A stretch of 64,000 bases of DNA from PVC group bacterium (GCA_024231215.1 JAAEQR010000142.1:100593-164592); one strand, 5' to 3'. Shown: positions 7,980-56,177, counted from the stretch's first letter. The notes: a model not told the origin generated them from the sequence alone. Numbers and translations: made by a program.

Positions 7980-8771
7980 TTGGAGCGACTTATGAAAAAC
8001 AAAAAAAACAATAATGACAAACCTAGAGTAAAATTCTCAGAAAATGATATACAGAAAAAACTCTATGGCGAAGAAAAAACAAAAAAAACACTGCCAAAGA
8101 TCATCAGCTCTATAGACAAAGATTCACCCATTAAACAAACAATCCCTACTAATAAACACATCCAGGAAGAAATAGACGCTCTTAAAGATGCTATAAATCA
8201 ACTTGAAGACAAATTAAAAAAAACAGAAGGACAAAAAGAACGTCTCAAAAAAAAACTTGTCCAAAGAAGATTTACAGCAAATCTAAAAGATGAAATCCTT
8301 GCAGTTATATCCAATAAGATACCTGAAAAAGTTATTATCCTTATTCCCGTTTTAGTTATTATTGTCCTTTTCATTCTCTTATTTAGCTTAAACCAGGAAA
8401 AAACTTCTACGCAAGAACCCCAGGCCGTTACTCAAACAGAAAGCCGGGTTCCTGAACGAAAAATTACCACTGCTCCTGTACCTGCGACTCCACGCCGAGA
8501 GAATAGCCCTGTTTTTGATTCAACAAAAAAATACACCCTTCAGGTTGCTGAATATTCCAATGAGCCCGCTGCAGAACGCTTTGTTAATAGCCTCAGAGAC
8601 CAGGGGTTTTACGTAAGCATCGATACCCGTTATCGGGGAGAAGAAAAAACGAATCCATATTTTAAAATTAACGTAGGTAAGTTTGATTCTTTTAACGAAG
8701 CAAAAAAATTTCATGAGGCATTTAAGCGAAAGACCGGTATAACAGACTCTTTTATCAAGGAGAAAAAGTAA
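7980..8771 (+). CDS. SPOR-domain membrane protein (coiled coil, one TM helix, C-terminal SPOR peptidoglycan-binding fold) inserted between trpF and trpB
   Basis: Starts 1 nt after the trpF stop; TM segment [20 protein letters not shown]; C-terminal [31 protein letters not shown]...[18 protein letters not shown] is a typical SPOR repeat. Confidence 0.6.
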
Positions 8772-9960: not shown

Positions 9961-10755
9961 ATGAATAGAATAGCTGTGAAAAACAATCATTTACAACAAA
10001 TACAAAAAAAAGCTTTTGTTGTCTATATTACTGCTGGATTTCCTAACATAAAAACAACAGAACAATTAATCCCCGTACTCGAGAAAAACGGGGTTGATTT
10101 CATTGAATTAGGAATGCCTTTTTCCGATCCGATTGCTGACGGTCCTACAATTCAAAAATCTTCATATACTGCGCTGCAAAAGGGTATGAATTTAGAAAAG
10201 TTCTTCAAGTTAGTATGCAGTATTCGAAAGAAAAGCAATATACCGTTAATCATGATGACTTATTATAATCCAATATATAACTATGGAATTAAACGGTTTG
10301 CAAAGATAGCTCATCAGTCAGGCTTAGACGGAGTAATCGTGCCCGATTTGCCTATTGAAGAAGCTTCTGAATTAAATCAATGTTTAAAACAATTTGATAT
10401 CGCTAATATCTTTTTAGTCTCTCCGGTAACACCAAAAAAACGCATCAGGAAAATCGCCGCTTTATCTTCCGGATTTATTTACTATGTATCTTTAACCGGA
10501 GTAACAGGGGTACGGGACAAACTTCCATCAGATTTAGTACAAAATATAAAAAAGATAAAGAGCGTAACAAAAAAACCTGTATTCGTAGGATTCGGGGTGT
10601 CAAAACCAAAGCAGATAAAAAATATTGATCGTGCTGCCAGCGGAGTTATTGTCGGCAGTGCTATTATTAAATCAATTGCAACTCATTACGGAACAAAAAA
10701 TTTTTTAAAAAAGATCGGGAAATTTGTAGCTTCCCTTAGTATTGTAACCAAATAA
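9961..10755 (+). CDS. trpA: tryptophan synthase alpha chain
   Basis: 264 aa; ELGMPFSDPIADGPTIQ, GFGVS motifs. Confidence 0.9.
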   Translation: MNRIAVKNNHLQQIQKKAFVVYITAGFPNIKTTEQLIPVLEKNGVDFIELGMPFSDPIADGPTIQKSSYTALQKGMNLEKFFKLVCSIRKKSNIPLIMMTYYNPIYNYGIKRFAKIAHQSGLDGVIVPDLPIEEASELNQCLKQFDIANIFLVSPVTPKKRIRKIAALSSGFIYYVSLTGVTGVRDKLPSDLVQNIKKIKSVTKKPVFVGFGVSKPKQIKNIDRAASGVIVGSAIIKSIATHYGTKNFLKKIGKFVASLSIVTK

Positions 10756-10776
10756 AAATCCAGCTGGAGAACCAAC

Positions 10777-12483
10777 ATGGCCGATTATGGAAAACTCGGA
10801 GAATTATTAATCCGCAAAAACATCATCACCGAAGATCAACTGGCTAGCGCGCTGCTCCGACAAAAAAAATCAAATTTAAGATTAGGTGAGGAACTCATAC
10901 GCAGCGGGATGGTCAGGGAAGAGGATATCCTATCCATTCTCGCTGAATCAATGAACATTCCATTCATAAAACTGCGGATAGAAACCATTGATCAACAACT
11001 TATTGATAAAATACCCGCGCGTTTTGTCACCCATTACAACTTTGTACCATTAAAAGAAGATAACGGGACATTAAATATCGCGATAAACGACCCGCTTGAC
11101 CTATACACTATTGATGAAATAAAACTGCTGCTCAAACAACCGCTAAAGATATCTCTGGCAACTTCAGCCGAAATCAATGAAGCAATTAAAAAATACTACG
11201 GAGTTGGGGCAAAAACCATGGCCCAGATGCTCGATGACTCTCAGCAGCTGGAGATAATCTCCCAGAAAGAAAAAACCACAGGAGAAGGCTCTTCAGAAGA
11301 AACAGACGATCCTTCAGTTATAAAATTTATTGATCAAATTATCCGCCAGGCAGTTAAAGAACGCGCCACAGATATTCATATAGAACCCTACGAAGGAAAT
11401 CTTCGTTTACGTTACCGGATAGATGGATTGCTCTATGACGTACCCGTACCTTCAACCATGCATCATTTTCAATCAGCCATAATTATCCGTTTAAAGATCA
11501 TGTCTGATTTAGATATTGCCGAGAAAAGATTACCTCAGGACGGCAGAATAAAAGTAAGAATCGACAGGGAAGACTATGATTTGAGAATTTCCATCCTGCC
11601 CACAAATTTTGGAGAAAGCATAGAAATAAGGATACTTTCCCGCAAACAAATATTTTCTAATCTTACACAATTAGGACTGGATCAATATGGCATGGAAATA
11701 CTCAATACAATGCTTAAACGACCGCATGGAATTATCTTAGTTACCGGGCCTACCGGCAGCGGAAAAACTACGACACTTTACTCATGTCTTAATAAAATTA
11801 ATGCTTCCGAACGTAAAATTATCACAATCGAAGATCCTATAGAATACCAGCTCCAAGGGGTAACCCAAGTACAGGTAAAACCAAAAATAAATCTCACTTT
11901 TGCAGATGGATTACGATCAATGCTTAGACATGACCCGGACATTATGATGGTCGGAGAAATAAGAGACCTGGAAACAGCGGAACTTGCTATCCGTACCGCG
12001 CTAACCGGACATCTGGTATTCAGCACTTTACATACAAATGATGCCCCCGGAGCAACTGCACGGCTTTTAGATATGGGGATTGAACCTTATTTGGTAGCAT
12101 CTTCACTAGACTGCGTTATAGCTCAACGCTTAGTTCGTTTAATATGCCCTCACTGCAAAGAAGAGATTAAGCCACATGCAGAACTATTAAGAGAATTTGA
12201 CATGCAGAATAAAGACAGTAAAAATTTAATTTTTTTCCAAGGTAAAGGCTGTGACCAATGTAACTACACAGGATATTGGGGAAGAACAGCCATATTTGAA
12301 ATTCTAAACGTAAACGACACGATAAAAGAAATGATCCTTAATCGCATACCATCCAACACCATAAAACAAAAAGCAATAAGCATGCAAATGAAAACACTCC
12401 GGCAATCTGGATGGGAAAAGATGGTTGAAGGACTAACAACACCAGAAGAAGTAATTCGAGTCACTCAAGAAGACGCCATATAA
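10777..12483 (+). CDS. type II secretion / type IV pilus assembly ATPase (GspE/PilB/MshE family) with an MshEN-like N-terminal domain
   Basis: 568 aa; Walker A GPTGSGKTTT, Asp box, His box, and a tetracysteine CPHC...CDQC. The N-terminus holds two tandem motifs, KLGELLIRKNIITEDQLASALLRQ and RLGEELIRSGMVREEDIL, separated by 5 aa, matching the MshEN c-di-GMP-binding consensus RLGxxLLxxG..xxxxLxxxLxxQ. Confidence 0.85.
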   Translation: MADYGKLGELLIRKNIITEDQLASALLRQKKSNLRLGEELIRSGMVREEDILSILAESMNIPFIKLRIETIDQQLIDKIPARFVTHYNFVPLKEDNGTLNIAINDPLDLYTIDEIKLLLKQPLKISLATSAEINEAIKKYYGVGAKTMAQMLDDSQQLEIISQKEKTTGEGSSEETDDPSVIKFIDQIIRQAVKERATDIHIEPYEGNLRLRYRIDGLLYDVPVPSTMHHFQSAIIIRLKIMSDLDIAEKRLPQDGRIKVRIDREDYDLRISILPTNFGESIEIRILSRKQIFSNLTQLGLDQYGMEILNTMLKRPHGIILVTGPTGSGKTTTLYSCLNKINASERKIITIEDPIEYQLQGVTQVQVKPKINLTFADGLRSMLRHDPDIMMVGEIRDLETAELAIRTALTGHLVFSTLHTNDAPGATARLLDMGIEPYLVASSLDCVIAQRLVRLICPHCKEEIKPHAELLREFDMQNKDSKNLIFFQGKGCDQCNYTGYWGRTAIFEILNVNDTIKEMILNRIPSNTIKQKAISMQMKTLRQSGWEKMVEGLTTPEEVIRVTQEDAI

Positions 12484-12488
12484 AAACT

Positions 12489-13694
12489 ATGCCTGTATAT
12501 GCCTATAAAGCAAAAGTTAAACCTGATGTTTTCAAAACCGGGACTATTGAAGCCGACAGCGAAAAGGCTGCGGTAAATAAGCTTCTCCAGCTTAATTATC
12601 ACCCAATTTCCATCTCTCAAGAATCAGAAAAACGTTTGCAAAAATACCGTCTTTTTCAAAAACTAAGCAGTAAAGATGTGTATATTTTCCTTCGCCAATT
12701 ATCAAATTTAATCAGCGCCGGGTTGCCTCTGGCAAAAGCACTGCATAACATAAGTGTTCAAAGCAATAATCCAAAACTGCGTCCGATTGTAACAGCCTTA
12801 AAAGAAAAAATACAAAAAGGAAAAACACTTTCGGAAGCTTTTGCCGATTCCCCTAATGTATTCACATCCCTGGAAATCAGTATGATCAAATCAGGAGAAA
12901 CCAGCGGAACATTAGCCGCAGTAATTACTAAAATTGCCGATTTAAAAGAAAATGATATCGCGTTCACTACAAAAATCAAAAATGCTCTAGCCTATCCAAT
13001 CCTTTTATTAGTCTCGGGGATACTCATGCTTTTTGTATTAGCTACATTTGTTTTTCCCAGGTTCATATCCTTATTTCAAGATTTAGGCCAGGATCTGCCA
13101 TTCATTACTCAAGTTTTAATTACAATAAGCCTTTTTATGAAAAAATTCTGGTTACTTATTATTGCAGGACTAGTCATTATGGGCACATTCTTCTCCGGAT
13201 ACCTCAAAACTGAACAAGGAAAACTCTGGTTTGATAAACTAAAATTTAATATTCCAATCATTAAAAATGTAATTATTAAAATTCAAATCAGCCGTTTCGC
13301 CAGAACTCTAGGCAGCCTAATTGAAAACGGTGTTCCTATACTTAATTCCTTGCAAGTTGTAAGTGAAGTTGCCAGCAATAAAGTATTTGCCCAGGAAATA
13401 AAAAACATTCATTCTCAGGTAGCAAAAGGGAAACACATAAGCGAAACTTTGAAAAAAAATACTGTTTTTGATAAAAACACATTAGACCTTATTAGTGTCG
13501 GCGAAGAAAGCGGACAATTAGAACAAATGCTTTTTCGTATCGCGCAAATGAATGAAAGCGAATCCACTCAACAAATAGAATCACTGGTATTCATGCTGGA
13601 ACCAACATTAATACTACTACTGGGAGGATTTATTGCCTTTATTGTTTTTGCAATTCTTTTGCCAATTTTCGAGATGAATCTTTTAATCCAATAA
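12489..13694 (+). CDS. type II secretion / type IV pilus platform protein (GspF/PilC family)
   Basis: 401 aa, polytopic; duplicated GspF-type domains; directly follows the ATPase. Confidence 0.85.
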   Translation: MPVYAYKAKVKPDVFKTGTIEADSEKAAVNKLLQLNYHPISISQESEKRLQKYRLFQKLSSKDVYIFLRQLSNLISAGLPLAKALHNISVQSNNPKLRPIVTALKEKIQKGKTLSEAFADSPNVFTSLEISMIKSGETSGTLAAVITKIADLKENDIAFTTKIKNALAYPILLLVSGILMLFVLATFVFPRFISLFQDLGQDLPFITQVLITISLFMKKFWLLIIAGLVIMGTFFSGYLKTEQGKLWFDKLKFNIPIIKNVIIKIQISRFARTLGSLIENGVPILNSLQVVSEVASNKVFAQEIKNIHSQVAKGKHISETLKKNTVFDKNTLDLISVGEESGQLEQMLFRIAQMNESESTQQIESLVFMLEPTLILLLGGFIAFIVFAILLPIFEMNLLIQ

Positions 13695-13704
13695 CGGAGG
13701 AATC

Positions 13705-14136
13705 ATGAATAAGAATTTTATGTACAAATCAGGGTTTACTTTAATTGAGTTAATGCTGGTAATCGTGATCATCGCCACACTTGCTGCTGTAGTTATGCCT
13801 CGTTTTACCGGCAAAGCAGAAATTGCCAGGATTACAGCCGCAAAAGCAGAAATCTTATCAAACATACCCCTAGCACTTGATCTCTATGAATTAGATAACG
13901 GTAGTTTCCCTAGTACCGAGCAGGGAATATCTGCTTTAGTTAAAAAACCAAACATTGCCCCTTTACCAAAAAACTGGAGCGGCCCCTATTTAAAGAAAAA
14001 ACCAATTGATCCCTGGGGAACTCCTTATACCTATATTAGTCCCGGAGTACACAATAAAAACGACTATGATTTATATTCTATGGGTAAAGACGGCGTAGAA
14101 GGCGGTGGGGATGATATCACCAATTGGGAAGAATAA
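13705..14136 (+). CDS. major pseudopilin / type IV pilin-like protein (GspG family)
   Basis: Prepilin leader plus G|FTLIELMLVIVII; C-terminal GspG-like ...DPWGTPY.Y...YDL.S.GKDG..GG. Confidence 0.8.
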   Translation: MNKNFMYKSGFTLIELMLVIVIIATLAAVVMPRFTGKAEIARITAAKAEILSNIPLALDLYELDNGSFPSTEQGISALVKKPNIAPLPKNWSGPYLKKKPIDPWGTPYTYISPGVHNKNDYDLYSMGKDGVEGGGDDITNWEE

Positions 14137-14605
14137 CGGCTTTACATTAATAGAACTACTTTCGGTAATTCTGCTTCTTGTGGTATTAATAACACTAAGT
14201 GTTCCAACCATGGCAAAAACTGCCCGCAGTTTTTATTTTAGGAATAAAGTAAAAACCATCACCGCACTTTTAGAATACGTTAGAAAAACATCCATCGTTG
14301 AAGAACGCACTTACAAATTCATCATCGATTCCGAAACAAATTCATATGAGATTAAATATGAAGACCTAACATTGCTTTACGATGATAAATTCAAAGCCGT
14401 TAATAATTCCATTATGCGCTCTCAAACTCTGCCCGAAGGATTTAACCTAAAAACCTCCGAATCAGAAGAAGAAACAGAAGAAATATTATTCACCTCTGAA
14501 GGAGGCATAACACATATAGAATTATACATCCATGATCAAAAAAATCATTTAGCAAAAATAACAACTACAGTAAGCGGAGAAATATCTGCGGAGTTTTTAC
14601 AATGA
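14105..14605 (+). CDS. minor pseudopilin (GspH-like)
   Basis: Short leader ending in G followed by FTLIELLSVILLLVVL (class III signal); overlaps the gspG 3' end by 32 nt; the ATG at 14111 is an alternative start. Confidence 0.6.
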   Translation: MGMISPIGKNNGFTLIELLSVILLLVVLITLSVPTMAKTARSFYFRNKVKTITALLEYVRKTSIVEERTYKFIIDSETNSYEIKYEDLTLLYDDKFKAVNNSIMRSQTLPEGFNLKTSESEEETEEILFTSEGGITHIELYIHDQKNHLAKITTTVSGEISAEFLQ

Positions 14606-14967
14606 AACAAAACAATACAGGTTTTATATTACTAGAGGTACTAACCGCGCTGGTAATCCTAACTCTTGGCATTCTGGTTATAATCCGGTCTTTATCTGTG
14701 GTTATTAAAAGCAACCGTCTTATCCAAAACCATACTTTGGCCGTTATTATTAGTGATAATATCTTTAACCGCATAGAAGCAAAAGAAAAAATAATCCCTC
14801 CTGAGAAAGTAAGCTTATTAGGGAAAAATTTTAATATAGAACAAGACATAACCGCTATAAATGATCTTTTTAAAAAATATTCTTTAAAAACCACCTGGGA
14901 AGAAGCCGGTAAAAATAATACTATTAACTTTAGCACCACAATAATTGATCCTGAACACCGCCTATAA
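14602..14967 (+). CDS. minor pseudopilin (GspI-like)
   Basis: N-terminal TG|FILLEVLTALVILTL prepilin-type sequence; ATGA-coupled to the upstream gene. Confidence 0.55.
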   Translation: MKQNNTGFILLEVLTALVILTLGILVIIRSLSVVIKSNRLIQNHTLAVIISDNIFNRIEAKEKIIPPEKVSLLGKNFNIEQDITAINDLFKKYSLKTTWEEAGKNNTINFSTTIIDPEHRL

Positions 14968-15022
14968 ATTAACTACATACAGGATTGACAATTTATAGAA
15001 CTAGTTATAAACTAATACTATT

Positions 15023-16213
15023 ATGGATATTTCAGTAGGGATTGGAAAGAGCAAAGAACTTGATTCATTCGCAGCCGGAGCATTAGCATCATCCGATGCA
15101 CTGGATAAGATGGGAAGGACGGATCCTGATATTCTGTTCTGCTTTGCCTCATCACGTTTTGACCATCACCAGTTGATCCGGGGGATAAAAAGTAATATAA
15201 CATCAGCGCCTCTAGTCGGATGCACAACCGCCGGAGAAATAACATCAGATGGCCCGGACACAAAATCAGTAGTTATTATGGCCCTTAAATCTTCGCGAAT
15301 ACATGCGGCATTAGGGATCGGAAAGAAAATAAGTCAAAATTCGCGTTCCGCTGGACAAGAAGTTTCCAGAGATACCGTAATAAAAACACGCCGAGGAGCA
15401 ATCAGGCATGCGTTTATGATGTTTCCTGACGGACTTAAAGGCAATAGCGCGGATATAATCCGCGGTATTCAGGAAGTACTGGGAACAAGCTTTCCGATTG
15501 TCGGTGGAGCTGCGGCAGATGACTTTTTATTTCAAAACACTTATCAGTACTATGATGATGGGGTTTACGAAGACTGTGTAGGCGGAGTTCTTTTTTCCGG
15601 AGATATCAGTGTGGGAATCGGAGCTAGACACGGCTGGTATCCTTTAGGAAAACCGCGGATTGTAACTGAAGCAGAACATAACATAATTCGAAAACTGGAC
15701 GGCAAGCCCGCAGCTAGAATATATGAGGATTATTTTGGCAAAAGAGTCGCTGATTTACAAAATGAACCTATGGCCAGAATGTCGGTTATGTATCCATTAG
15801 GCATGACCATCCCCGAAGAAGAAGAATGTATCGTTAGAAACGCCTTAAGGGTAGATAAAGACGGCGCTCTGATTTGTGCGGGAGAAGTACCTAAAGGCTC
15901 AGAAATTCGAGTAATGATGGGTTCTAAAGAAACCGCGCTTAAAGCAGCAAAAAAAGCTGCGGAAGTTGCTCTCGGAGCTCTTCGCAAACGCAAAGCAAAG
16001 TTAGTATTTATTTTTGATTCTGTATCACGCGCTAAATTATTTGGAAGAAATGCCGCCCAGGAAATAGAAGTCGTTAAAAATATTTTCGGGAAAGAAACCC
16101 CAATAATCGGCTTTTATACTTACGGAGAGCAAGCACCCTTAGGTGCTACTATTAATTTAGGACAAACATTTTTCCACAACGAAACTATAGTTGTGTTTGC
16201 AATTGGAGAATAG
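15023..16213 (+). CDS. FIST-domain sensory protein (FIST_N + FIST_C)
   Basis: 396 aa; FIST hallmarks (FCFASSRFD, VGCTTAGEI, later FYTYGEQAP). Confidence 0.8.
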   Translation: MDISVGIGKSKELDSFAAGALASSDALDKMGRTDPDILFCFASSRFDHHQLIRGIKSNITSAPLVGCTTAGEITSDGPDTKSVVIMALKSSRIHAALGIGKKISQNSRSAGQEVSRDTVIKTRRGAIRHAFMMFPDGLKGNSADIIRGIQEVLGTSFPIVGGAAADDFLFQNTYQYYDDGVYEDCVGGVLFSGDISVGIGARHGWYPLGKPRIVTEAEHNIIRKLDGKPAARIYEDYFGKRVADLQNEPMARMSVMYPLGMTIPEEEECIVRNALRVDKDGALICAGEVPKGSEIRVMMGSKETALKAAKKAAEVALGALRKRKAKLVFIFDSVSRAKLFGRNAAQEIEVVKNIFGKETPIIGFYTYGEQAPLGATINLGQTFFHNETIVVFAIGE

Positions 16214-16218
16214 ATTCA

Positions 16219-17805
16219 ATGAAAATTAATATTTGGCTTATCTTAATTATCGGAGCAGCCGTCTTAAGTGTAGTGGTCATTGTTAATAGCATGGTTGCTA
16301 AACTTATGGGTGGATTTATCCTGCTTGTTTTGCTGGCTTATCTGGCTGAAATGTCTCGCGAAGACAGAGAACAAATAGCCAAGATGCAGCGAGCGTTAGA
16401 TAAATTAAGAAACGCCTACAGCGAACTGGATGAACAGGCCAAGATTATCATCCGTACTGACTTAGAATTAAATCGCACTCAAGAAGAGTTAGATAAAAAA
16501 ATTAACGGATTATATACCCTGCACGAACTGGGTAAACTTATGGGCGCCACGCTTGATGTCCAAAAACTATTCACACAGATAACCGAACCGCTAATTCTCA
16601 AACTTGGTTTTGAAAAAACAATCATTTGCATCACTGAAAAAAGTGGAAGCAATAAACAGCCTCAATGTAAAGCTTGTATTGGTTTTGAACAAATATTCAT
16701 ACAAAAACTCCAAGAGCAAAGTCTTGAAAATGAATTCCTTAAAAATGTTTTTGAAAAAGGAACCGCAATCCTGGTAAAAAACAAGGATTCAGCATCAGAT
16801 CAAGAACGGATATGGCTTAAATTTTTCGATGTATCATCTTTTGTTATTGTGCCAATTGTAATAAAAGAACATGTTCAGGGATACATCTTTGTCGGAAACA
16901 CTAATCCCTACAGCCATATTTCAGAAGGGGATATTGATTTATTGTTTATCCTTTCAAACCAGATTGCCGGATCAGTAGAAACTGCCCGTCTTTACGAAGA
17001 ATTAAAACATTCTCACGACCAATTAGAAATCAGGGTACAGGAAAGAACAAAAGAACTTGCAGAAGCAAATCAAAAACTTGTAAAACTCGACAAAATGAAA
17101 TCCGACTTTGTATCTGCGGTTTCTCATGAATTGAGAACTCCACTAACGTCAATTAAAGGATACGCCGCAATCATGATGGCCGGCAGATTAGGAGAAGTCA
17201 CAGAAATACAACAAGAAAAACTTAAAAAGATCAACGTACATAGCGACGAGTTAATTCAATTGGTAAATGATCTTTTAGATATTGCACGGATTGAATCCGG
17301 GCGGATCGGTATGAGCATAAAACATGCTTCTTTAACAGAAATAATAAAAAGCATAGCTGATTTATTTTTTCCGCAAACCGACGAAAAAGATATCAATATG
17401 GTTCTCGATATGCCGGAAGATCAATTAATGGTCTGGATGGATCCCAGTCAAATATCCCGTGTATTCATTAATTTAATTGGTAATGCCATGAAGTTTACTC
17501 CGCAAAATGGAGAAATTTCCATAAAAGTAAAACCAGGAGAAGATTTTATCACTGTGGAAGTCTCAGATAGCGGAATTGGGATAAGCAAAGAAGATATGGC
17601 TAGAATTTTTGATGAATTCTATCGTGTTGACAACGCGATCAATGTAGAAAAGAAAGGGACAGGATTAGGTCTCTCTCTGGTAAATAAAATTATTACCGCA
17701 CACAAAGGCAAACTTTGGGTAAGCAGTGAACTAGGTAAAGGAACAACTTTCCACTTCACATTATCTACTAAGCAGGTAGAAGACTCACATATAACCGTGG
17801 ACTAA
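16219..17805 (+). CDS. sensor histidine kinase (TM - coiled coil - GAF - HisKA - HATPase_c)
   Basis: 528 aa; N-terminal TM helices; H-box HELRTPLTSIKGY; N/G boxes (GNAMKFT, DSGIGI, GTGLGLS). Confidence 0.85.
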   Translation: MKINIWLILIIGAAVLSVVVIVNSMVAKLMGGFILLVLLAYLAEMSREDREQIAKMQRALDKLRNAYSELDEQAKIIIRTDLELNRTQEELDKKINGLYTLHELGKLMGATLDVQKLFTQITEPLILKLGFEKTIICITEKSGSNKQPQCKACIGFEQIFIQKLQEQSLENEFLKNVFEKGTAILVKNKDSASDQERIWLKFFDVSSFVIVPIVIKEHVQGYIFVGNTNPYSHISEGDIDLLFILSNQIAGSVETARLYEELKHSHDQLEIRVQERTKELAEANQKLVKLDKMKSDFVSAVSHELRTPLTSIKGYAAIMMAGRLGEVTEIQQEKLKKINVHSDELIQLVNDLLDIARIESGRIGMSIKHASLTEIIKSIADLFFPQTDEKDINMVLDMPEDQLMVWMDPSQISRVFINLIGNAMKFTPQNGEISIKVKPGEDFITVEVSDSGIGISKEDMARIFDEFYRVDNAINVEKKGTGLGLSLVNKIITAHKGKLWVSSELGKGTTFHFTLSTKQVEDSHITVD

Positions 17806-17833
17806 CAAAAACATCGCACAGGGAGTTCCAGAT

Positions 17834-18775
17834 ATGAGAAAACAAAAAATACTTATTGTTGATGACGAGCCGGATATCCGGGATGTTTTAAAGATAACCC
17901 TGGAATGCGAAGGATATGATGTACAAGAAGCATGTGACGGAGTAGATGGTTTGGCAAAAGTAAATAAAGTCTCTCCAGACCTTGTAATATTAGATAATAA
18001 TATGCCTAAAATGACGGGACAGGAAGTTTGTGAAATATTAAAAAAAGATATCTTGTTAAGACATATGCCGATAATAATGCTCACCGGCAAAGGAGATATT
18101 CAGGATAAAGTCAAAGGCTTAGACGCCGGCGCAGATGACTATATCGTAAAGCCATTTGAACCTCAGGAACTAGTCGCCAGAATAAAAATGATCTTACGCC
18201 GCTCTTCCCGGGATTTAGACGCAAATCCGTTAAGCCGCTTACCAGGCAATATCACGATTATGAGCGAACTAGAAGCAGCAATCCACAGCGGAAAACAGTT
18301 TGCCGTATGTTATCTAGACTTAGACAAGTTCAAATCTTTTAATGACACTTATGGCTTTGAACACGGAGATGAAGTTATTAGAGAGACAGCCCGAATAATT
18401 TTAAGTACTGCAAATGAAATTGGCAACAAAGAAGACTTTGTCGGACATATCGGGGGCGATGATTTTGTCATCCTTACTACAATAGAAAAATCGGACGAAT
18501 TATCTCAAGTTATTATTGATGCATTTGACAAGACAGCTCCAGCCTTTTATAACAAAGAAGATCGGGAACGTAATTGTATAATTGCTAAAGATCGGCAGGG
18601 CAATGTGCAAAAAATTCCACTTATCTCAATTTCTATCGGTATTGTTACTAATGAATATCGTACTATTTCTCATGTAGCAGAGATCGGAGAAATCGGGGCA
18701 GAACTAAAAAAACTAGCAAAATCAAAAGAACACAGTAACTTTGTGAGAGACAGCCGGAAAGATGAAGCCGCCTAA
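17834..18775 (+). CDS. response regulator, REC + GGDEF-family domain with a GGDDF signature (probably degenerate)
   Basis: 313 aa; receiver LIVDDEPDIRD...LVILDNNMP...KPF; C-terminal GGDEF fold (YLDLDKFKSFNDTYGFEHGDEVI ... HIGGDDFVIL) in which the catalytic fourth residue is D not E, and no RxxD I-site lies upstream. Confidence 0.8.
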   Translation: MRKQKILIVDDEPDIRDVLKITLECEGYDVQEACDGVDGLAKVNKVSPDLVILDNNMPKMTGQEVCEILKKDILLRHMPIIMLTGKGDIQDKVKGLDAGADDYIVKPFEPQELVARIKMILRRSSRDLDANPLSRLPGNITIMSELEAAIHSGKQFAVCYLDLDKFKSFNDTYGFEHGDEVIRETARIILSTANEIGNKEDFVGHIGGDDFVILTTIEKSDELSQVIIDAFDKTAPAFYNKEDRERNCIIAKDRQGNVQKIPLISISIGIVTNEYRTISHVAEIGEIGAELKKLAKSKEHSNFVRDSRKDEAA

Positions 18776-19081: not shown

Positions 19082-21112
19082 ATGAGAGTTATGAAAACAA
19101 AAAAACTCCTTATATTGATATTAATTCAACTGTTTCTATTTCAGCCATTATCTTGGGCTGGAACTAGCGAACTTTCACCCCATTTGCGAATTTCTAACTC
19201 CATTGTTCAAGCAACATTCAAAAACAATCCAACCGATAGTCAATTACAACAAAATTCTGATATCCAGACCAACAGGGAGTTACCCGGACTTACAATCGCT
19301 ATTAATATCAGAGATTTAGGCGTAGAAATACTTTCCGGCGGTAAAATAATTTATAAAAACTGTTTAGAAAAAGCAGAGCAAATTCTGCCGCTCCTAAAGA
19401 GAACATTCGGAGTAAGTAATGTATATATTTACGACAGTTTTTATGAGTTGGGCAAGATGAGTACACTTACCCATACCCGCAAGACGGAAGATTATCTAAC
19501 TACATATAATGACTTGGGCATAGAAGAACGCATAAGCCCCATCCATACTGGAAGAGCGTCTGTTATCGTAAAAAATAATTATATTGGAAAGAAAAAAACA
19601 ATCAATACTTCCAGGGGACAGTCAATATTAGATGATCGCAACGGTAATTCTTTTTCTCTTGCTGGGATGATAAAAAAGATAAAGAATAAATGGAAGCTGA
19701 ATATAAACCCTAAATTATCCGATTCCGAATTTCCCGACGCAAAAAAATCCGCTCAGGCCTTAAAAAATTTTTTAGATACCTCTAAACACCTGGATATAAA
19801 AATAATCACTGATTTTATTCCCTGGATGGCTCCAGACGCGGTGGATGAGACTAATTATAAATGGACGTTTTACACAGAAATAAGCGAAGCTGAAAACGCG
19901 CAATTTCGCAGTCTGCCAGGAGAAAAAGAAAAACAGAAATTTATCGAAAATCTTCTGGCCTGGAGCGGCAACAAAAGTTTTACCGCAGTGAGGATAACAG
20001 AGAATGGATTAGAGCGAATAATTTTGGTCAAGCGCCTGCGGTTTTACGGTATCTATAGCGCCGATCAGGTAGTTTTAAATCCCTTTCTACCGGAAGTTCA
20101 AGAATATTATATAAACACCTTGAAACTTTTAACCGATGCGGGTATTGGCGGTGTACGTATTGACTTGGGCGGCATCCTCTTAAACAAAGGCCTAAAAGAT
20201 CCGGAGGCCAGATATCTTGATTTTGTGAGTGAAGAACAAAAGCAAAGCAGTGAAAAATTGCATGGAAAACCCTGGTCTGAAATTATAGCCGGGGAAGAGC
20301 CCTGGAAAAATATTTTGTCTAAGGCTAAAGAATACGCACGGAATAAAAATGCCCCTCTGGAAGTATTGATGGAAATATACAGCTATGACGAAACGGAGAT
20401 GGAACGGGTATTGGCCTTAGGAGTGGATAAACTTTATTATGAAGACGTCTATGAAAATTACAAACACCTGGAATGGGGGACTCCGGAAGAAAAAGCGAAC
20501 GCGGTTAACTGGCTCTATGAATCGCTTGAATTCATGATTAAACATAAAGACAAATTACTTATTTTCCCGATGTCTAATTTTGATAAGCCTTCGGCAGAAT
20601 TGCTTGGCGGCCCCATTACCGGCATGAGAGCATTGTCAATTTATACAGCAAAAGCCGGGATTAAAACAATGGTTGATTTCAGAGAATTATTGGGACAATT
20701 TGGACAATTTTTCCCTATTCCAGGAGGCATTGAAAGCGATGGTACTTACAGCCACCCCTTTGTTAAGGACGCGGAAGCTGAACAGCGTAAAGATTTTGCC
20801 GGAACACAAAATGCTTTAGACAATAGCCCGTTCCTATCGTTGATTAATCGTTTATTTAATATACAAACAGAGTCCGGGCAAACGATAATGTCCTTGCCGG
20901 TGCTCAAGATAAATCCACCGCAAAAAGACGCGCATGGCAAGCTTCATTTAAGCTGGGAAACTGACCAAGGAATAATTGTGCGGTTTTCTATCGACCTAAA
21001 TAATCAGGGCCAGGACAGTTATCAGGTAGATTTTTTTCAGGACAACTTTCAACAACCGCTAAAAACCATGCACGTATCTTCACATAATAACCTTATCCAA
21101 CAGGCAATATAA
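19082..21112 (+). CDS. large secreted hypothetical protein (signal peptide; possible glycosidase-like TIM-barrel segment)
   Basis: 676 aa; N-terminal signal MRVMKTKKLLILILIQLFLFQPLSWAG; GIGGVRIDLGG resembles the region-II motif of GH13-like hydrolases but no full catalytic signature was recognised. Confidence 0.55.
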   Translation: MRVMKTKKLLILILIQLFLFQPLSWAGTSELSPHLRISNSIVQATFKNNPTDSQLQQNSDIQTNRELPGLTIAINIRDLGVEILSGGKIIYKNCLEKAEQILPLLKRTFGVSNVYIYDSFYELGKMSTLTHTRKTEDYLTTYNDLGIEERISPIHTGRASVIVKNNYIGKKKTINTSRGQSILDDRNGNSFSLAGMIKKIKNKWKLNINPKLSDSEFPDAKKSAQALKNFLDTSKHLDIKIITDFIPWMAPDAVDETNYKWTFYTEISEAENAQFRSLPGEKEKQKFIENLLAWSGNKSFTAVRITENGLERIILVKRLRFYGIYSADQVVLNPFLPEVQEYYINTLKLLTDAGIGGVRIDLGGILLNKGLKDPEARYLDFVSEEQKQSSEKLHGKPWSEIIAGEEPWKNILSKAKEYARNKNAPLEVLMEIYSYDETEMERVLALGVDKLYYEDVYENYKHLEWGTPEEKANAVNWLYESLEFMIKHKDKLLIFPMSNFDKPSAELLGGPITGMRALSIYTAKAGIKTMVDFRELLGQFGQFFPIPGGIESDGTYSHPFVKDAEAEQRKDFAGTQNALDNSPFLSLINRLFNIQTESGQTIMSLPVLKINPPQKDAHGKLHLSWETDQGIIVRFSIDLNNQGQDSYQVDFFQDNFQQPLKTMHVSSHNNLIQQAI

Positions 21113-31233: not shown

Positions 31234-31803
31234 ATGAAAAACAATATTATCACAAGCATTACAGATTCAATTAAAGTGAAAGAGAAAATGCTTTCTGCTT
31301 TAATACCCGAGATTGAACATACCGCAAAAACAATAATTAAAGCATACAAAAAGAAAAAGAAAGTCTTAATTTTCGGTAACGGTGGAAGTGCCGCAGATAG
31401 TCAGCACATTGCAGCTGAACTTGTCGGTCGATTTAAAAAAGAAAGACAGGCATGGCCGGCAATAGCATTAACCACAAATACCTCGATTTTAACGGCTTTG
31501 GCTAACGATTATTCTTATGATTGTATTTTCGAACGGCAAATAGAGGCTTTGGGAAACAAAGGAGATATCGCCATCGGCATTTCAACCAGTGGCAAAGCTC
31601 CAAATGTTATTGCCGGGTTTAAAAAAGCACGCAAACAAGGGCTTACCTGCATCGCGTTAACCGGACAAAAAGGAAGTAACTTAAAAAAACTAACGGATAT
31701 CTGCCTCATGGCACCAGCTAAAGATACTCCAAGAATTCAGGAAGCACATATTTTAATCGCACACATTATCTGTGATCTTGTCGAAAAAGATCTTACATCA
31801 TGA
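31234..31803 (+). CDS. gmhA: D-sedoheptulose 7-phosphate isomerase (SIS domain)
   Basis: 189 aa; SIS motifs (IFGNGGSAADSQH, GISTSGKAPNVI). Confidence 0.8.
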   Translation: MKNNIITSITDSIKVKEKMLSALIPEIEHTAKTIIKAYKKKKKVLIFGNGGSAADSQHIAAELVGRFKKERQAWPAIALTTNTSILTALANDYSYDCIFERQIEALGNKGDIAIGISTSGKAPNVIAGFKKARKQGLTCIALTGQKGSNLKKLTDICLMAPAKDTPRIQEAHILIAHIICDLVEKDLTS

Positions 31804-32285
31804 TAAAAAAGAAAATAAAAACTATCAGCTCTTTAAAAAAAATAATTGCATCGCTTAAAAAAAACGGTAAAAAGATAGTTTTCACCAACGGTTGTTTTGA
31901 TATAATCCATTCCGGACATGCACTGTATCTGGAAGAAGCAAAAAAACTAGGTGATCATCTTATTGTCGCCTTAAATAGCGATGCTTCAGTAAAAAAAATA
32001 AAAGGAAAATCGCGGCCCATTGTCGGGGAAAAAGAACGGGCCACTGTAATTGCCGCTTTAGAAAGCGTTGATTTTGTTGTGATTTTTAACGAAACAACAC
32101 CGCTTTCTCTTATAGAAAAACTTACTCCTGATGTACTGGTAAAAGGCTCTGATTGGAAACAAGGTAAAATCGTCGGAGCAGACCATGTAATACGTTGCGG
32201 AGGCAAGGTGAAAAGCGCGAAATTCATTCAAGGATGTTCAACAACTCAACTCATTAAAAAAATTGTCAAAAAAAGCAGTAACTAA
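31800..32285 (+). CDS. D-glycero-beta-D-manno-heptose 1-phosphate adenylyltransferase (RfaE/HldE domain II-like cytidylyltransferase)
   Basis: 161 aa; nucleotidyltransferase HxGH motif (FTNGCFDIIHSGH) and ...IKGKSRPIV...; adjacent to gmhA. Confidence 0.8.
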   Translation: MIKKKIKTISSLKKIIASLKKNGKKIVFTNGCFDIIHSGHALYLEEAKKLGDHLIVALNSDASVKKIKGKSRPIVGEKERATVIAALESVDFVVIFNETTPLSLIEKLTPDVLVKGSDWKQGKIVGADHVIRCGGKVKSAKFIQGCSTTQLIKKIVKKSSN

Positions 32286-42494: not shown

Positions 42495-43901
42495 ATGGAT
42501 AAACCGTTAGAAGAGTCTTTTGATTTATATAATGAACTACGATCAAACACACGAATCAGAACCCGTTTAAAAGTTCAATTCCAAAAAGTATCGGAAGATG
42601 GAACCTTAGATGAGTTACAACTTACTCTTGCTAGTGATATCAGCACAACCGGCATTCATCTGGTAACCGAAGAAACCATTCCCATGAACTCAAAGGTAAA
42701 AGTAATCTTCCGTTTGCCGAAACTTTCTAATCCCATAGAAGTCATCTGCCGGGTAGTAAGAGTCGAAGAATTGAAAAATAGTACTTTTGGCATCGGAATG
42801 CTTTTTGAAGAAATCATCAACGAGAATAAAGAAGCAATCATAAAATGCATCGAAACCATGGACATTCTAAAACTACTCCAGATAACCTATCAGAAAAAAG
42901 CATCTGATTTACATCTTACATACAACCGTCCACCGATCATGCGCCTGCACGGCCGCCTTGTCCCAATTGGAGAAGAAGCATTAAGCACTTTAGAGTTAAA
43001 AAACATTATCTATAGTATTCTCTCCGATGAACAAATCGCCCGTTTTGAAAAATTCAGAGAACTCGATTTTGCATTTTCTCCCAATCCGGACTTCCGATTT
43101 CGCGTAAATGTACATCTTCAAAGAGGGAATGTAGAAGCTACGTTCCGGGTAATCATGCCTGATTTAAAAACAATACAAGAGTTAGGACTGCCAAGCGTAG
43201 TCGAAGAGCTCTCTTTAAGAAAAAAAGGTATTGTAGTTATTGCCGGGCCTACAGGCAGCGGCAAAACAACAACCCTAGCCGCAATGATCGATATTATCAA
43301 TCGCAAACGCGAAGCAGTTATCATTTGTTTAGAAGACCCGATTGAATATATCCATAAAAATCTCAATTCTATAATAAAACAACGTGAAATCGGTTCTGAT
43401 ACATTATCCTTTTCCGTAGCTTTAAAAAGAACCCTGCGTCAGGATCCTGATGTTATTTTAGTAGGCGAGTTACTTGACGCTGAAACCGTACGCACAGTAA
43501 TTACTGCCGCGGAAACCGGACATTTGGTAATCACATCCTTACATGCACCTGATACAGTACAAGCTGTGGATCGATTAATAAGTATTTTCCCTCCCCAACA
43601 ACGAAATCAAGCCTGTGTCCAGCTTGCAAACAGTCTGCAAGGAATAATAACACAACTCCTTGTACCTAAAAAGGATAAGGAGACAAGGGTAGTCGCTACA
43701 GAGGTTATGGTCGTGACAGATGCAATTCGTAATCATATCCGGGAAGGTCAAACCATTCAGATACCATCCAGTATTCAGACCGGAGCTCGTTATCGCATGC
43801 ACACCATGCAAGAAAGCTTTAAGCGCTTATTTAACAATAACATAATCTCTAAGGAGACCGCTATTGACCACTGCCCGGAATTAGACCAAATATTAACTTG
43901 A
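42495..43901 (+). CDS. PilZ-domain / PilT-like retraction-type ATPase fusion
   Basis: 468 aa; N-terminal PilZ with RSNTRIR (RxxxR) and DISTTG (DxSxxG) c-di-GMP motifs; then PilT N-domain and Walker A GPTGSGKTTT, Asp and His boxes. Confidence 0.8.
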   Translation: MDKPLEESFDLYNELRSNTRIRTRLKVQFQKVSEDGTLDELQLTLASDISTTGIHLVTEETIPMNSKVKVIFRLPKLSNPIEVICRVVRVEELKNSTFGIGMLFEEIINENKEAIIKCIETMDILKLLQITYQKKASDLHLTYNRPPIMRLHGRLVPIGEEALSTLELKNIIYSILSDEQIARFEKFRELDFAFSPNPDFRFRVNVHLQRGNVEATFRVIMPDLKTIQELGLPSVVEELSLRKKGIVVIAGPTGSGKTTTLAAMIDIINRKREAVIICLEDPIEYIHKNLNSIIKQREIGSDTLSFSVALKRTLRQDPDVILVGELLDAETVRTVITAAETGHLVITSLHAPDTVQAVDRLISIFPPQQRNQACVQLANSLQGIITQLLVPKKDKETRVVATEVMVVTDAIRNHIREGQTIQIPSSIQTGARYRMHTMQESFKRLFNNNIISKETAIDHCPELDQILT

Positions 43902-47296: not shown

Positions 47297-47325
47297 TTGA
47301 CAAACAATCTTGTAGTATCTATAAT
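47297..47325 (+). promoter_or_regulatory. consensus sigma70 promoter (TTGACA-17-TATAAT)
   Basis: Exact consensus hexamers at 47297-47302 and 47320-47325 with a 17-nt spacer, about 65 nt upstream of the PilZ gene. Confidence 0.55.
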
Positions 47326-47389
47326 AAAATTCGAAAGCAATAATTAAACATTTTAAAAACATAAAAAAACTTTAAAGCGGAGGTTTGTT

Positions 47390-47767
47390 ATGGACAACAA
47401 AGAATCGCTGGAAGAAAGACGGAACTTTAGCAGGGTAAAGATTCCTAACCTTAAAGCAAACTTTAAATTACTTAATCTACGCACCTACTCAACCTACCTT
47501 GAAAAAAATCCAGAACCAATTGAAGATATCAGCTTAGGTGGAATGTCGTTAAAAACATTCAACAATCTTGAAACAAAATCCCCGGTTACGATTGATTTTA
47601 AAATAGGAGCAGAACCTTATACAGTTAAAGTTTTCGGCCGTATTGCCTGGATTAAACAAGTCCAGGAACAAGACTACATGATGGGAATCAGCTTCTCCTG
47701 GTGGAACAAAGAAGAAGATAAAAAAATCGTTAAAGAACTAATAAGTCAGTATAAAAAGACAGAATAA
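47390..47767 (+). CDS. stand-alone PilZ-domain protein
   Basis: 125 aa; RRNFSRV (RxxxR) and DISLGG (DxSxxG) motifs. Confidence 0.7.
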   Translation: MDNKESLEERRNFSRVKIPNLKANFKLLNLRTYSTYLEKNPEPIEDISLGGMSLKTFNNLETKSPVTIDFKIGAEPYTVKVFGRIAWIKQVQEQDYMMGISFSWWNKEEDKKIVKELISQYKKTE

Positions 47768-47786
47768 TCCGGAGACACACTTTCGC

Positions 47787-49286
47787 ATGAAAGTTTCATA
47801 TAAAGAAGAAATTTTTAAACGTCTAATTGAATATCCAAGCTGGAAAAATGAAATTGACTGCTTCACTAAAGTTATCGGCAGCAACGATTGGGTAATTTTA
47901 TCCAAAACCGGAGCACCCCAAGTCCGACACCAAAAAATATCGAAGGCTAAATCCGCTTCAAAAAAAGACCCCCTGACAAAACTAAAAAAACTGATTTCCT
48001 CGGCTAAAAAAACACATAAAGTTCAAGAAAAAATCAGCATTAACGGCAATTCTACATATTGCATTCCAATTATCCGGGGCGATCAAATATACGGATATCT
48101 CGGCATATTAAATTTAAAAACAAAAATCCCGGCAAAGTTTTCAGATCTTTTCAACGCATTCACCTGCGCAACAATAGAAAGCGTGCAAAAAGAATTAGAA
48201 CTGATGAAAATGTCCGAAACTATACGCCCCAGAACAATAGCTCTTTCTACTATACATACTGTAAACAGAATCATTAGCTCCACTCTGGAAATAGAAGAAC
48301 TCCTGCCGCGTATTGCCCGGCTCAGCCTGCAAGTATTGCGAGCCCGCCGGTGCACAATTATGCTTGTAGATAAAAACAAACGACTCTTAATCCCGCATGC
48401 TGTAGTTGACGTACAACAAAAAAAACCAAAACAAGAACCCCTGAAAATAGGGAAGGGACTACCGGGACAAGTCGTTAAATACGGAAAAACAATTATTCGC
48501 AATAAATATTTATGCGTTCCCTTTGTTGCCGAAGAAAATATCATCGGCGCAATAAGTGTATCTTACAGATTAGACAACAAACCATTTAATATTTTTGATA
48601 AAGAAATCTTAACGACCCTGGCCGAACAAGCCGTAATTGCGATCAAGAACGCCCAGCTCTATGAAGAACAAGAAAAATTAGCCCTAAACAGTATCAAAGC
48701 ATTAGCATCTGTATTGAGTTCAGGAGTTGCTTTCAATTACGGCCGTTCCAATTTGTTTATCAATGTTACAATGTCCATCGGCATGGAACTCAAACTCAGG
48801 TCTGATGAAATGCGCATTCTTTATTACGCAGCATTACTTCACAATGTCAGCCAAATGAGTCTACCGGAAAAACTTCTCAAAAAATCAACCAAATTAACCG
48901 GTAAAGATTATAAAATAATCCGGTCACATCCACTTATTGGAGCTCAAATAATAAAACCCATCGGAGGACGTTTAAAATCAGTTTTACCGATAATAATATA
49001 TCACCATGAACGTTACGACGGAAAAGGCTATCCTAGCGGACTAAAAGCGGATGAAATCCCATTAGGTGCCAGAATCCTCATGGTTGCCGATGCTTTTGAA
49101 GCTATGCTTTCGAAGAGACCGTACAGAAAAAAACTTACCATATCGCAAGCTGTATCGGAAATAGTAAGATTTAGCGGAGAGCAGTTTGACCCGGTTATTG
49201 TCGATGCATTTGTGAGGGTAATAAAACGCTTTAAAACCAAGATTTTTCGCACCGGAAAAAATGCCTGGGTGTGGAAAAATTTATAG
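47787..49286 (+). CDS. GAF-GAF-HD-GYP protein with non-canonical HN in place of the HD dyad
   Basis: 499 aa; two GAF-like regions then HHERYDGKGYPSGL (HD-GYP signature), but the upstream metal-binding motif reads LLHNVSQ instead of LLHDIGK. Confidence 0.8.
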   Translation: MKVSYKEEIFKRLIEYPSWKNEIDCFTKVIGSNDWVILSKTGAPQVRHQKISKAKSASKKDPLTKLKKLISSAKKTHKVQEKISINGNSTYCIPIIRGDQIYGYLGILNLKTKIPAKFSDLFNAFTCATIESVQKELELMKMSETIRPRTIALSTIHTVNRIISSTLEIEELLPRIARLSLQVLRARRCTIMLVDKNKRLLIPHAVVDVQQKKPKQEPLKIGKGLPGQVVKYGKTIIRNKYLCVPFVAEENIIGAISVSYRLDNKPFNIFDKEILTTLAEQAVIAIKNAQLYEEQEKLALNSIKALASVLSSGVAFNYGRSNLFINVTMSIGMELKLRSDEMRILYYAALLHNVSQMSLPEKLLKKSTKLTGKDYKIIRSHPLIGAQIIKPIGGRLKSVLPIIIYHHERYDGKGYPSGLKADEIPLGARILMVADAFEAMLSKRPYRKKLTISQAVSEIVRFSGEQFDPVIVDAFVRVIKRFKTKIFRTGKNAWVWKNL

Positions 49287-56139: not shown

Positions 56140-56168
56140 TTGACTTTTTTACAAATAATCTTTATAAT
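56140..56168 (+). promoter_or_regulatory. near-consensus sigma70 promoter (TTGACT-17-TATAAT)
   Basis: Hexamers at 56140-56145 and 56163-56168 with a 17-nt spacer, 10 nt before the ATG at 56178. Confidence 0.55.
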
Positions 56169-56177
56169 TTAATAATC

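Follow-up and report, generated by a model that had tools for sequence, protein, structure and literature searches.

The stretch of DNA analysed here (64 kb; hereafter the window) carries, directly after a run of histidine and tryptophan biosynthesis genes, a set of genes for a filament core of the T2SS (type II secretion system) kind, gspE-F-G-H-I, followed by a triad encoding a protein with FIST domains, a histidine kinase (HK) and a response regulator (RR) that combines a receiver (REC) domain with a GGDEF-family domain (10777-18775, Table 1). A preliminary description of this DNA had proposed that these eight genes constitute a single pilus or secretion module wired to cyclic di-GMP (c-di-GMP) and fused to the 3' end of the trp operon. 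Our results point instead to two adjacent transcription units, which may together form a local c-di-GMP circuit. The order GspE-GspF-GspG-two minor pseudopilins-FIST-HK-REC/GGDEF was confirmed by Pfam and NCBIfam domain matches, and our list of open reading frames (ORFs) places all the genes, junctions and motifs where the preliminary description had put them. The proteins are identical to MCP4649908.1 through MCP4649915.1, from a metagenome-assembled genome (MAG) labelled "PVC group bacterium"; their close relatives are all from Omnitrophota, and the source genome is an Omnitrophota MAG. Component searches covered the window as the sole part of this genome, the Pfam scans taking in essentially all of its ORFs of at least 110 amino acids (aa), and NCBIfam models were scored against their own cutoffs.

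The gsp core and its maintenance

The first gene of the set encodes an ATPase that, judging from its domain scores, clearly belongs to the GspE/PilB class, just under the GspE equivalog cutoff (TIGR02533, 620.4 bits for a cutoff of 630.25; PilB, 602.6 bits for a cutoff of 675.65), with a GPTGSGKT Walker A motif and a CPHC...CDQC tetracysteine motif. The platform protein reaches 359 bits with the GspF model (TIGR02120, cutoff 424), and the major pseudopilin is above the GspG cutoff of 88.85, with the leader MNKNFMYKSG/FTLIE and a C-terminal GKDGVEGGGDD tail resembling a calcium site. Both minor pseudopilins are weakly assigned: the GspH/ComGD-like protein, whose true start is possibly the ATG at 14111, scores below both cutoffs (GspH, 36.5 bits; ComGD, 38.9 bits), and the GspI-like protein falls short of 44.35 bits. 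The locus has two minor pseudopilins, H-like and I-like, rather than the four (H, I, J and K) of a T2SS. As previously described, no secretin, prepilin peptidase (Peptidase_A24) or PilM/N/O was found by the Pfam scans of the window ORFs, nor was GspC, J, K, L or M, and a complete T2SS cannot be claimed for this locus. More distant GspE homologues (53-59% identity) are not linked to trp and lie in long operons, such as that of another Omnitrophota contig (L005, E-F-G-H-I-J-K-L-M-secretin, full T2SS-type). The five genes thus appear to be a reduced version of such operons, and gspE-F-G-H-I is best described, from its predicted products, as a reduced T2SS-type (type IV filament) core. The label "MSHA-like" of the preliminary description did not hold, the pilin being a bona fide GspG and the ATPase scoring closer to GspE; the MSHA type IV pilus was rejected on these pilin and ATPase scores, with no other msh components in the window, and a ComG assignment was rejected on the same scores.

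Selection on the eight genes was assessed against the related contig L001 with our own NG86 count; since synonymous divergence (dS) is saturated, we quote the non-synonymous and synonymous proportions (pN and pS), which are 0.09-0.35 and 0.70-0.87, respectively, over all eight genes. GspE has a pN of 0.110 for a pS of 0.87, to be compared with a pN of 0.114 for TrpB, and the values for GspF, GspG, GspH and GspI are 0.18, 0.15, 0.30 and 0.35. With pN far under the saturated pS, all five gsp genes are under purifying selection and are maintained, not decaying.

Two other parts of the window touch on the nature of the filament. One ORF encodes a retraction ATPase of the PilT family (TIGR01420, 414 bits, cutoff 319) fused to a PilZ domain whose RSNTR and DISTTG motifs are canonical, and a plain PilT at 45% identity is encoded convergently, directly past the regulator, in four relatives (L004, L094, L097 and L099); a retraction motor close to a T2SS-type core is unusual. 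Elsewhere, lipopolysaccharide (LPS) heptose-pathway genes, for a GmhA-like SIS protein and a cytidylyltransferase-like protein, suggest a diderm envelope. The host probably has an outer membrane, and a surface filament would then require a secretin.

Table 1. Features of the gsp-FIST locus, followed by other features of the window. Coordinates are counted from the first letter of the window.
Feature	Coordinates	Strand	Evidence or remarks
trpA	9961-10755	+	ORF list; Trp_syntA in orthologous loci
trpA-gspE junction, 21 nt	10756-10776	+	GGAGA at 10766-10770, 6 nt before ATG
GspE/PilB-type assembly ATPase, 568 aa	10777-12483	+	Pfam T2SSE 453 bits plus MshEN
Tandem MshEN-type motifs (putative c-di-GMP binding), residues 6-58	10792-10950	+	NF053729
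GspF/PilC-type platform protein	12489-13694	+	Two T2SSF domains, 196.8 bits
GspG major pseudopilin	13705-14136	+	TIGR01710 157.1 bits; T2SSG 114 bits
Minor pseudopilin, weakly GspH/ComGD-like (G/FTLIE)	14105-14605	+	N_methyl domain
Minor pseudopilin, weakly GspI-like (G/FILLE)	14602-14967	+	N_methyl; TIGR01707 38.1 bits
Conserved promoter TTGACA-17 nt-TAAACT	14985-15013	+	Ends 9 nt before FIST ATG
Cytoplasmic FIST_N+FIST_C sensor protein	15023-16213	+	FIST 175 bits, FIST_C 110 bits
Histidine kinase	16219-17805	+	2 transmembrane helices, marginal GAF, HisKA, HATPase_c
Response regulator, REC-helical linker-GGDEF-fold	17834-18775	+	Response_reg 113.7 bits; GGDEF 64.4 bits
Variant active-site motif GGDDF, residues 207-211	18452-18466	+	Sequence reading
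SPOR-domain protein between trpF and trpB	7980-8771	+
676-aa signal-peptide protein	19082-21112	+	No Pfam or NCBIfam match
LPS heptose-pathway genes	31234-32285	+	GmhA-like SIS and cytidylyltransferase-like proteins
PilZ-PilT fusion	42495-43901	+	TIGR01420
Promoter, stand-alone PilZ and GAF/HD-GYP genes	47297-49286	+	TTGACA-17-TATAAT
Stand-alone PilZ	47390-47767	+	RNFSR, DISLGG motifs
GAF plus HD-GYP protein	47787-49286	+	HD dyad HN; HHE...GYP kept
Second SPOR protein	49430-50002	+
Second leaderless-type promoter and 305-aa ORF	56140-57095	+	TTGACT-17-TATAAT
IS200/Y1-type transposase fragment	58353-58919	+

Transcriptional organisation and distribution of the triad

In agreement with the preliminary description, gspE begins 21 nt past trpA. 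This junction is found within a gene order, hisD-hisB-hisF-hisI-trpEGDCF-SPOR-trpBA followed by gspEFGHI-FIST-HK-RR, that is common to six independent contigs (the window, L001, L003/L092, L004, L094 and L097), GspE identity being 72-84% in the contigs that share it. GspE and RR orthologues co-occur on shared contigs (n=6), and the linkage of gsp to FIST is also seen in four shorter contigs (L095, L096, L099 and L119). The trpA-gspE distance in the relatives is -4, 17, 21, 19 and 17 nt, with a GGAG or AGGAG Shine-Dalgarno sequence in each, and in one relative gsp would be translationally coupled to the his-trp run. No terminator was found on the + strand at the window junction, and the 21-nt gap is too small to hold a promoter. 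A sigma-70-like site is absent from the last 300 nt before gspE (inside trpA) in five of six loci, as is a stringent sigma-70 pattern from the full his-trp-gsp stretch. The same stringent pattern detects the FIST promoter described below and other intergenic sites, which provides a positive control, and promoter-pattern sites on the + strand of the window number only six, five of them intergenic. The terminator/promoter pair that might have separated trpA from the ATPase gene was thus looked for and not found. The junction conserved at -4 to +21 nt, its Shine-Dalgarno sequence and the lack of terminator or promoter favour, over the six contigs, read-through from trp, and co-transcription of gspEFGHI with trp is the most economical reading of these sequences, one that we consider likely.

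The style of the genome weighs against giving this adjacency a regulatory meaning. All the genes from 491 to 58919 lie on the + strand (a same-strand run of ~58 kb), and the junctions of the window have a median gap of 12 nt and measure at most 25 nt in 41 of 61 cases. The short or overlapping co-directional junctions emphasised in the preliminary description do exist in the block formed by the trp-attached gsp genes and the triad (-32 to +55 nt), but they are not special: as co-directionality and tight spacing typify 58 kb of the window, they carry little weight, and the trp adjacency itself may be without regulatory meaning. The long run ends at a transposase fragment of the IS200/Y1 type, and past ~59.4 kb the genes lie on the - strand and GC falls to 0.34-0.36. 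At the gathering threshold, Rfam returned two tRNAs only for the window, with no c-di-GMP riboswitch, T-box or trp leader. Within the trp run, the protein encoded between trpF and trpB is a coiled-coil membrane protein with a SPOR (peptidoglycan-binding) domain, which is found at this place in each of the six related contigs; another SPOR protein is encoded further along the window.

The triad has a promoter of its own, in the 55-nt gap that precedes FIST. As this promoter ends 9 nt from the ATG, with no Shine-Dalgarno sequence between the two, the FIST mRNA is probably leaderless. Its boxes and their distance to the ATG are kept in 14 of 14 clade loci, the rest of the spacer measuring 49-764 nt; in L003, a nitroreductase-family gene (14415-15104) is inserted between gspI and FIST, and the promoter stays directly 5' of FIST. 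Similar sites (TTGACC-17/18-TATACT) occur just 5' of FIST in several distant loci. Because the triad has its own promoter and recurs elsewhere beside Tad-like pilus or housekeeping genes, gspEFGHI and FIST-HK-RR are two transcription units, and the idea of a single module gives way to that of a phylum-wide triad with varied neighbours. Another promoter of the leaderless type, elsewhere in the window, ends 10 nt ahead of an ORF without family match. Downstream of the triad, the gene of the 676-aa signal-peptide protein is served by a separate extended -10 element (TGGTATAAT, around 19023); relatives lack this protein at this position and have small ORFs, a toxin-antitoxin pair or PilT instead.

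The neighbourhoods of the triad were compared in an 80-locus metagenome sample anchored on FIST. Where FIST identity is at least 66%, gsp genes lie upstream in all five informative loci. At 34-45% identity (group C), a divergent Tad-like cluster, with a rotamase, RcpC, a secretin with TonB_C and a CpaE/TadA fusion, lies upstream in 18 of the 27 loci, the remainder having single pilus genes (4/27) or no pilus neighbours (5/27). Two results speak against an exclusive tie to filaments: at 48-56% identity and high GC (group B), where the neighbours are housekeeping genes, pilus genes were counted in 0 of 10 loci (9-10 of 10 without pilus neighbours), and in two loci with FIST identity of 49-52% and ~62% GC (L117 and L122) the triad stands among genes for an aminotransferase, an M17 aminopeptidase, folE, thiC, nadA and PFOR, with no pilus gene close by. 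The triad does not belong exclusively to this gsp set.

A further locus (L128, 9986-20296) encodes FIST, a fusion protein, PilT, an MshEN ATPase, an unknown ORF, two GspG-like pilins, PilC and a PilM-like protein. The fusion (479 aa) joins the transmembrane (TM), coiled-coil and GAF half of the kinase (34% identity with residues 59-261 of the window HK, E 7e-32) to the GGDDF half of the regulator (52% identity, E 4e-66), with no kinase or receiver domain, and the arrangement is a one-component version of the circuit. From this fusion we argue that kinase and regulator belong to one pathway whose output is the GGDDF domain; the locus is also the third independent link of FIST/GGDDF to type IV filament ATPases.

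Candidate receptor and cyclase of c-di-GMP

The preliminary description had recognised, at the N-terminus of GspE, two tandem MshEN-type motifs with a 5-aa spacer, and these passed a hidden Markov model search: residues 6-58 reach 61.8 bits with NF053729, an NCBIfam model of an MshE-related c-di-GMP motif (cutoff 38). The motifs are KLGELLIRKNIITEDQLASALLRQ (residues 6-29) and RLGEELIRSGMVREEDILSILAES (residues 35-58), on either side of the spacer KKSNL (residues 30-34), and the domain aligns to the N-domains of MshE (5htl), Geobacter PilB and Thermus PilF. Compared with the MshEN consensus, which consists of two 24-residue RLGxx(L/V/I)(L/V/I)xxG(L/V/I)(L/V/I)xxxxLxxxLxxQ motifs and a 5-residue spacer, motif 1 reads K-LG..LI..N.II....L...L..Q and motif 2 R-LG..LI..G.MV....I...L..S, with canonical residues at 18 of the 22 scored positions and the 5-residue spacer.

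The deviations count against binding: in motif 1 the stacking Arg is replaced by K and the turn Gly by N, in motif 2 Gln is replaced by S (K6, N15 and S58 corresponding to R9, the turn Gly and Q61 of MshE), and position 1 of motif 1 drifts between K, R, Q and L among orthologues. In MshE, hydrophobic residues and Gly backbone amides carry c-di-GMP binding, and affinity shifted by a factor of less than five when Arg9, Asp12 or Gln32 was changed (PMC5013675); given this small cost at equivalent positions, the K, N and S substitutions should be tolerable. The Arg of motif 2 is kept in 20 of 21 orthologues, and GspE of this clade retains both motif glycines and the motif-2 Arg, which many Omnitrophota paralogues from full T2SS operons have lost (both glycines in the L005-type proteins); overall the motif is no better kept than in other Omnitrophota GspE, the score being 16.9/22 for both, and the difference lies only at specific positions. 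We thus regard binding of c-di-GMP by the GspE N-domain as plausible and, from its motifs, fairly probable, and gating of the gsp core by c-di-GMP would be plausible as well.

Two considerations make GspE a less obvious target. The window encodes other likely c-di-GMP receptors, the PilZ-PilT fusion and a stand-alone PilZ protein, and c-di-GMP is diffusible. The stand-alone PilZ gene has its own promoter and is followed by a gene for a GAF plus HD-GYP protein with an altered HD dyad (Table 1), perhaps a receptor or a phosphodiesterase without activity.

The last gene of the triad had been described as a REC-GGDEF regulator. It does encode a REC domain and a GGDEF-family domain, but the motif reads GGDDF, outside the accepted [G/A/S]G[D/E]E[F/Y], which weighs against a cyclase. 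Of 120 homologues, 116 have GGDD[F/Y]. In the window the I-site position has NKED and not RxxD, and most homologues show N-x-[DE]-D there; the RxxD I-site is common among GGDEF cyclases and not defining. Conservation of this regulator family is very strong, and its members are for the most part confined to Omnitrophota. In an alignment of 55 homologues (mean column identity 75%), the REC residues D10, D11, D54, T84 and K106 are invariant, as are the palm residues D162, K165-F166-K167, N170, D179, G207-G208-D209-D210 and A295-K296. N170 and D179 align with the guanine readers N335 and D344 of PleD, and the whole metal- and guanine-binding set of PleD (D327, N335, D344 and K442) corresponds to the invariant D162, N170, D179 and K296. 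The Pfam GGDEF match is restricted to model positions 20-118 of 161; an AlphaFold2 model (pLDDT 85) has WspR, PleD and DgcR as its best Foldseek matches (E 9e-24 to 6e-20). No EAL or HD-GYP partner domain was found in the regulator, and a Hypr (cGAMP) cyclase was rejected, D179 being Asp rather than the Ser of Hypr enzymes. GSU1937 is the only GGDDF domain shown to be active, having made c-di-GMP in E. coli, and other GGDDF proteins, such as PA3258, are inactive (PMC8835794), the latter again to the detriment of a cyclase assignment. Since the motif is non-canonical, c-di-GMP synthesis cannot be taken as given; on its conserved residues we lean towards diguanylate cyclase activity for the regulator.

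Upstream in the predicted pathway, the stand-alone FIST_N+FIST_C protein is encoded 5' of the histidine kinase, as in NosP loci. It scores 116.1 bits with the NosP model (NF041558, cutoff 450), indicating full-length homology and not an equivalog, and a search of PDB sequences matched no solved structure. FIST domains have reportedly been suggested to bind amino acids, an idea said to come from Borziak and Zhulin in 2007. The kinase has two TM helices with almost no loop between them, a coiled coil, a marginal GAF domain, HisKA and HATPase_c, and is membrane-anchored. The two-component parts are complete, with a HisKA and HATPase kinase and a REC domain bearing the phospho-acceptor Asp.

A putative local circuit, its alternatives and known systems

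The gene content, the domain matches, the conserved synteny, the FIST promoter, the purifying selection and the domain fusion reported above are best explained, with what we judge to be an even chance of being right, by two adjacent transcription units that form a local c-di-GMP circuit. The gspEFGHI genes, without a promoter of their own, would be transcribed as the tail of the his-trp run and their products switched after translation, and FIST-HK-RR would be expressed from its own, probably leaderless, promoter. Cytoplasmic FIST would bind a small ligand, perhaps nitric oxide (NO) or haem by analogy with NosP, and modulate the membrane-anchored GAF kinase, which would phosphorylate the REC domain; the regulator would then dimerise and its GGDDF domain make c-di-GMP without product inhibition. 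Binding of c-di-GMP to the MshEN motifs of GspE would switch on the polymerisation of GspG on GspF, with secretion or a surface filament as the presumed output, and other loci would have to encode the prepilin peptidase, the rest of the platform and, if there is one, the outer-membrane secretin.

The triad could instead be a global, vertically inherited Omnitrophota regulator, of c-di-GMP or otherwise, of which GspE is no specific target, next to a constitutively expressed gsp core that owes its linkage to trp to the compactness and co-directionality of the genome. Its own promoter, the loci without pilus neighbours (9-10/10 in group B and 5/27 in group C), the median gap of 12 nt over a 58 kb same-strand run and the further c-di-GMP receptors elsewhere in the window would all suit such a regulator. 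What makes us think this rather unlikely is that FIST and GGDDF stand beside type IV filament ATPase loci in three architectures (gsp, Tad-like in 18/27 and L128), that the gsp-FIST linkage has outlasted saturated synonymous divergence as well as an inserted gene, and that GspE of the clade keeps both motif glycines and the motif-2 Arg, lost in many full-T2SS paralogues.

A local circuit could also fail at the regulator, were the GGDDF domain an inactive receptor or scaffold, or the maker of another nucleotide, so that the circuit would not run on c-di-GMP made by the regulator. We hold this to be unlikely, despite the non-canonical Asp as fourth residue of the motif, the partial Pfam coverage (positions 20-118 of 161), a weak match to the Cas10 palm-2 domain (E 0.007) and the inactivity of PA3258 (PMC8835794): the invariance of GGDD[F/Y] and of the substrate-binding residues over 55 homologues suggests catalysis rather than decay, residue 179 is Asp and not the Hypr Ser, an EAL or HD-GYP partner domain is lacking, the fold matches active cyclases, and the GGDDF domain of GSU1937 did make c-di-GMP in E. 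coli (PMC8835794). As for gspEFGHI being the decaying remnant of a full T2SS operon like that of L005, which would build nothing, the missing J, K, L, M, C, D and O in the window, together with the full operon of other Omnitrophota, would agree with it and also weigh against a working filament. Such a remnant is nonetheless highly improbable, as the five ORFs remain intact across ten contigs, pN is much lower than pS with GspE constrained like TrpB (0.110 and 0.114), the motifs for catalysis and the sites of prepilin cleavage are preserved and the Shine-Dalgarno sequence is conserved.

Taking the local circuit further, a joint reading would make the triad a phylum-wide master switch of Omnitrophota type IV filament machines, covering the Tad-like system near giant adhesin genes, sets resembling the type IV pilus (T4P) and the Gsp core. 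As output, this switch would have a class of catalytically competent cyclases whose motif is non-canonical and which lack product inhibition. The trp-attached E-F-G-H-I would then build a c-di-GMP-gated filament, possibly retractile since PilT adjoins in relatives and a PilZ-PilT fusion exists in this genome, with secretin and peptidase borrowed from another locus and basal expression tied to amino-acid biosynthesis. We offer this joint reading as a speculation that is doubtful as a whole. Omnitrophota, which are abundant and for the most part uncultured, may be predators or epibionts, with attachment to prey believed to be driven by their pilus and secretion loci. A conserved candidate sensor-to-cyclase module with a recognisable promoter beside pilus loci is a testable regulatory hypothesis, and the regulator homologues form a large natural family in which to ask if GGDDF cyclases have activity. 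The link to trp is a curiosity; at most, it suggests expression of the filament core together with housekeeping biosynthesis and a switching-on after translation.

Several known systems resemble parts of this locus. The same tandem 24-residue motifs with a 5-residue spacer are present in MshE of the V. cholerae MSHA pilus and in PA14_29490/HxcR-type T2SS ATPases (Wang et al. 2016, PMC5013675). As in MshE, they stand at the N-terminus of a GspE/PilB-type hexameric ATPase; unlike MshE, the window GspE has K, N and S for R, G and Q, its binding is predicted from sequence, its partner pilin is of the GspG type and not MshA, and a candidate cognate cyclase is encoded alongside. The closest precedent for the triad is NosP-NahK-NarR of Legionella pneumophila (PMC11237717, PMC8846402), where a stand-alone FIST protein, a kinase and a REC c-di-GMP enzyme share one operon, NosP-NahK being also found in P. 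aeruginosa and Burkholderia. In contrast to these, the window regulator has GGDDF only and no EAL, the module is linked to type IV filament loci, the kinase is membrane-anchored with a GAF-like domain and is not a hybrid, and FIST remains at 116 bits for a NosP equivalog cutoff of 450. WspR, PleD and DgcR have the same REC-GGDEF order and fold, and the phospho-acceptor, metal-binding Asp and guanine-reading Asn/Asp are kept, whereas the window regulator has GGDDF in place of GG[D/E]EF and NxxD in place of RxxD. GSU1937 of Geobacter sulfurreducens (PMC8835794) has the same GGDDF variant, likewise without EAL or HD-GYP partner, but it is a Hypr (Ser348) cGAMP synthase with a TM N-terminus, whereas the window regulator has the canonical Asp and a REC input.

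Among filament loci, the rotamase/RcpC/secretin/ATPase cluster that precedes giant genes in West-Roberts et al. 2023 (bioRxiv 10.1101/2023.11.21.568195) is the group C cluster, and a term search of that paper returned no mention of c-di-GMP. Unlike those giant-gene loci, the window has a five-gene trp-attached Gsp core as neighbour of the triad and contains no giant gene. The ComG pseudopilus of monoderm bacteria likewise consists of an ATPase, a platform, a major pilin and few minor pilins, with no secretin in the operon; unlike ComG, the window ATPase scores 268 bits with ComGA (cutoff 300), the best matches are GspE, GspF and GspG, and the host is probably diderm. MshEN-type ATPases, NosP-NahK-NarR-like FIST modules, REC-GGDEF cyclases and Omnitrophota pilus/secretion loci are thus all known kinds. 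What is new is their combination: in one clade the trp operon has a reduced E-F-G-H-I core fixed to its end, the regulators form a conserved GGDD[F/Y] family without I-site, and the FIST triad, with its leaderless-type promoter, is found again and again next to type IV filament systems of different kinds. The locus is a tidy variant of known biology and no new kind of system.

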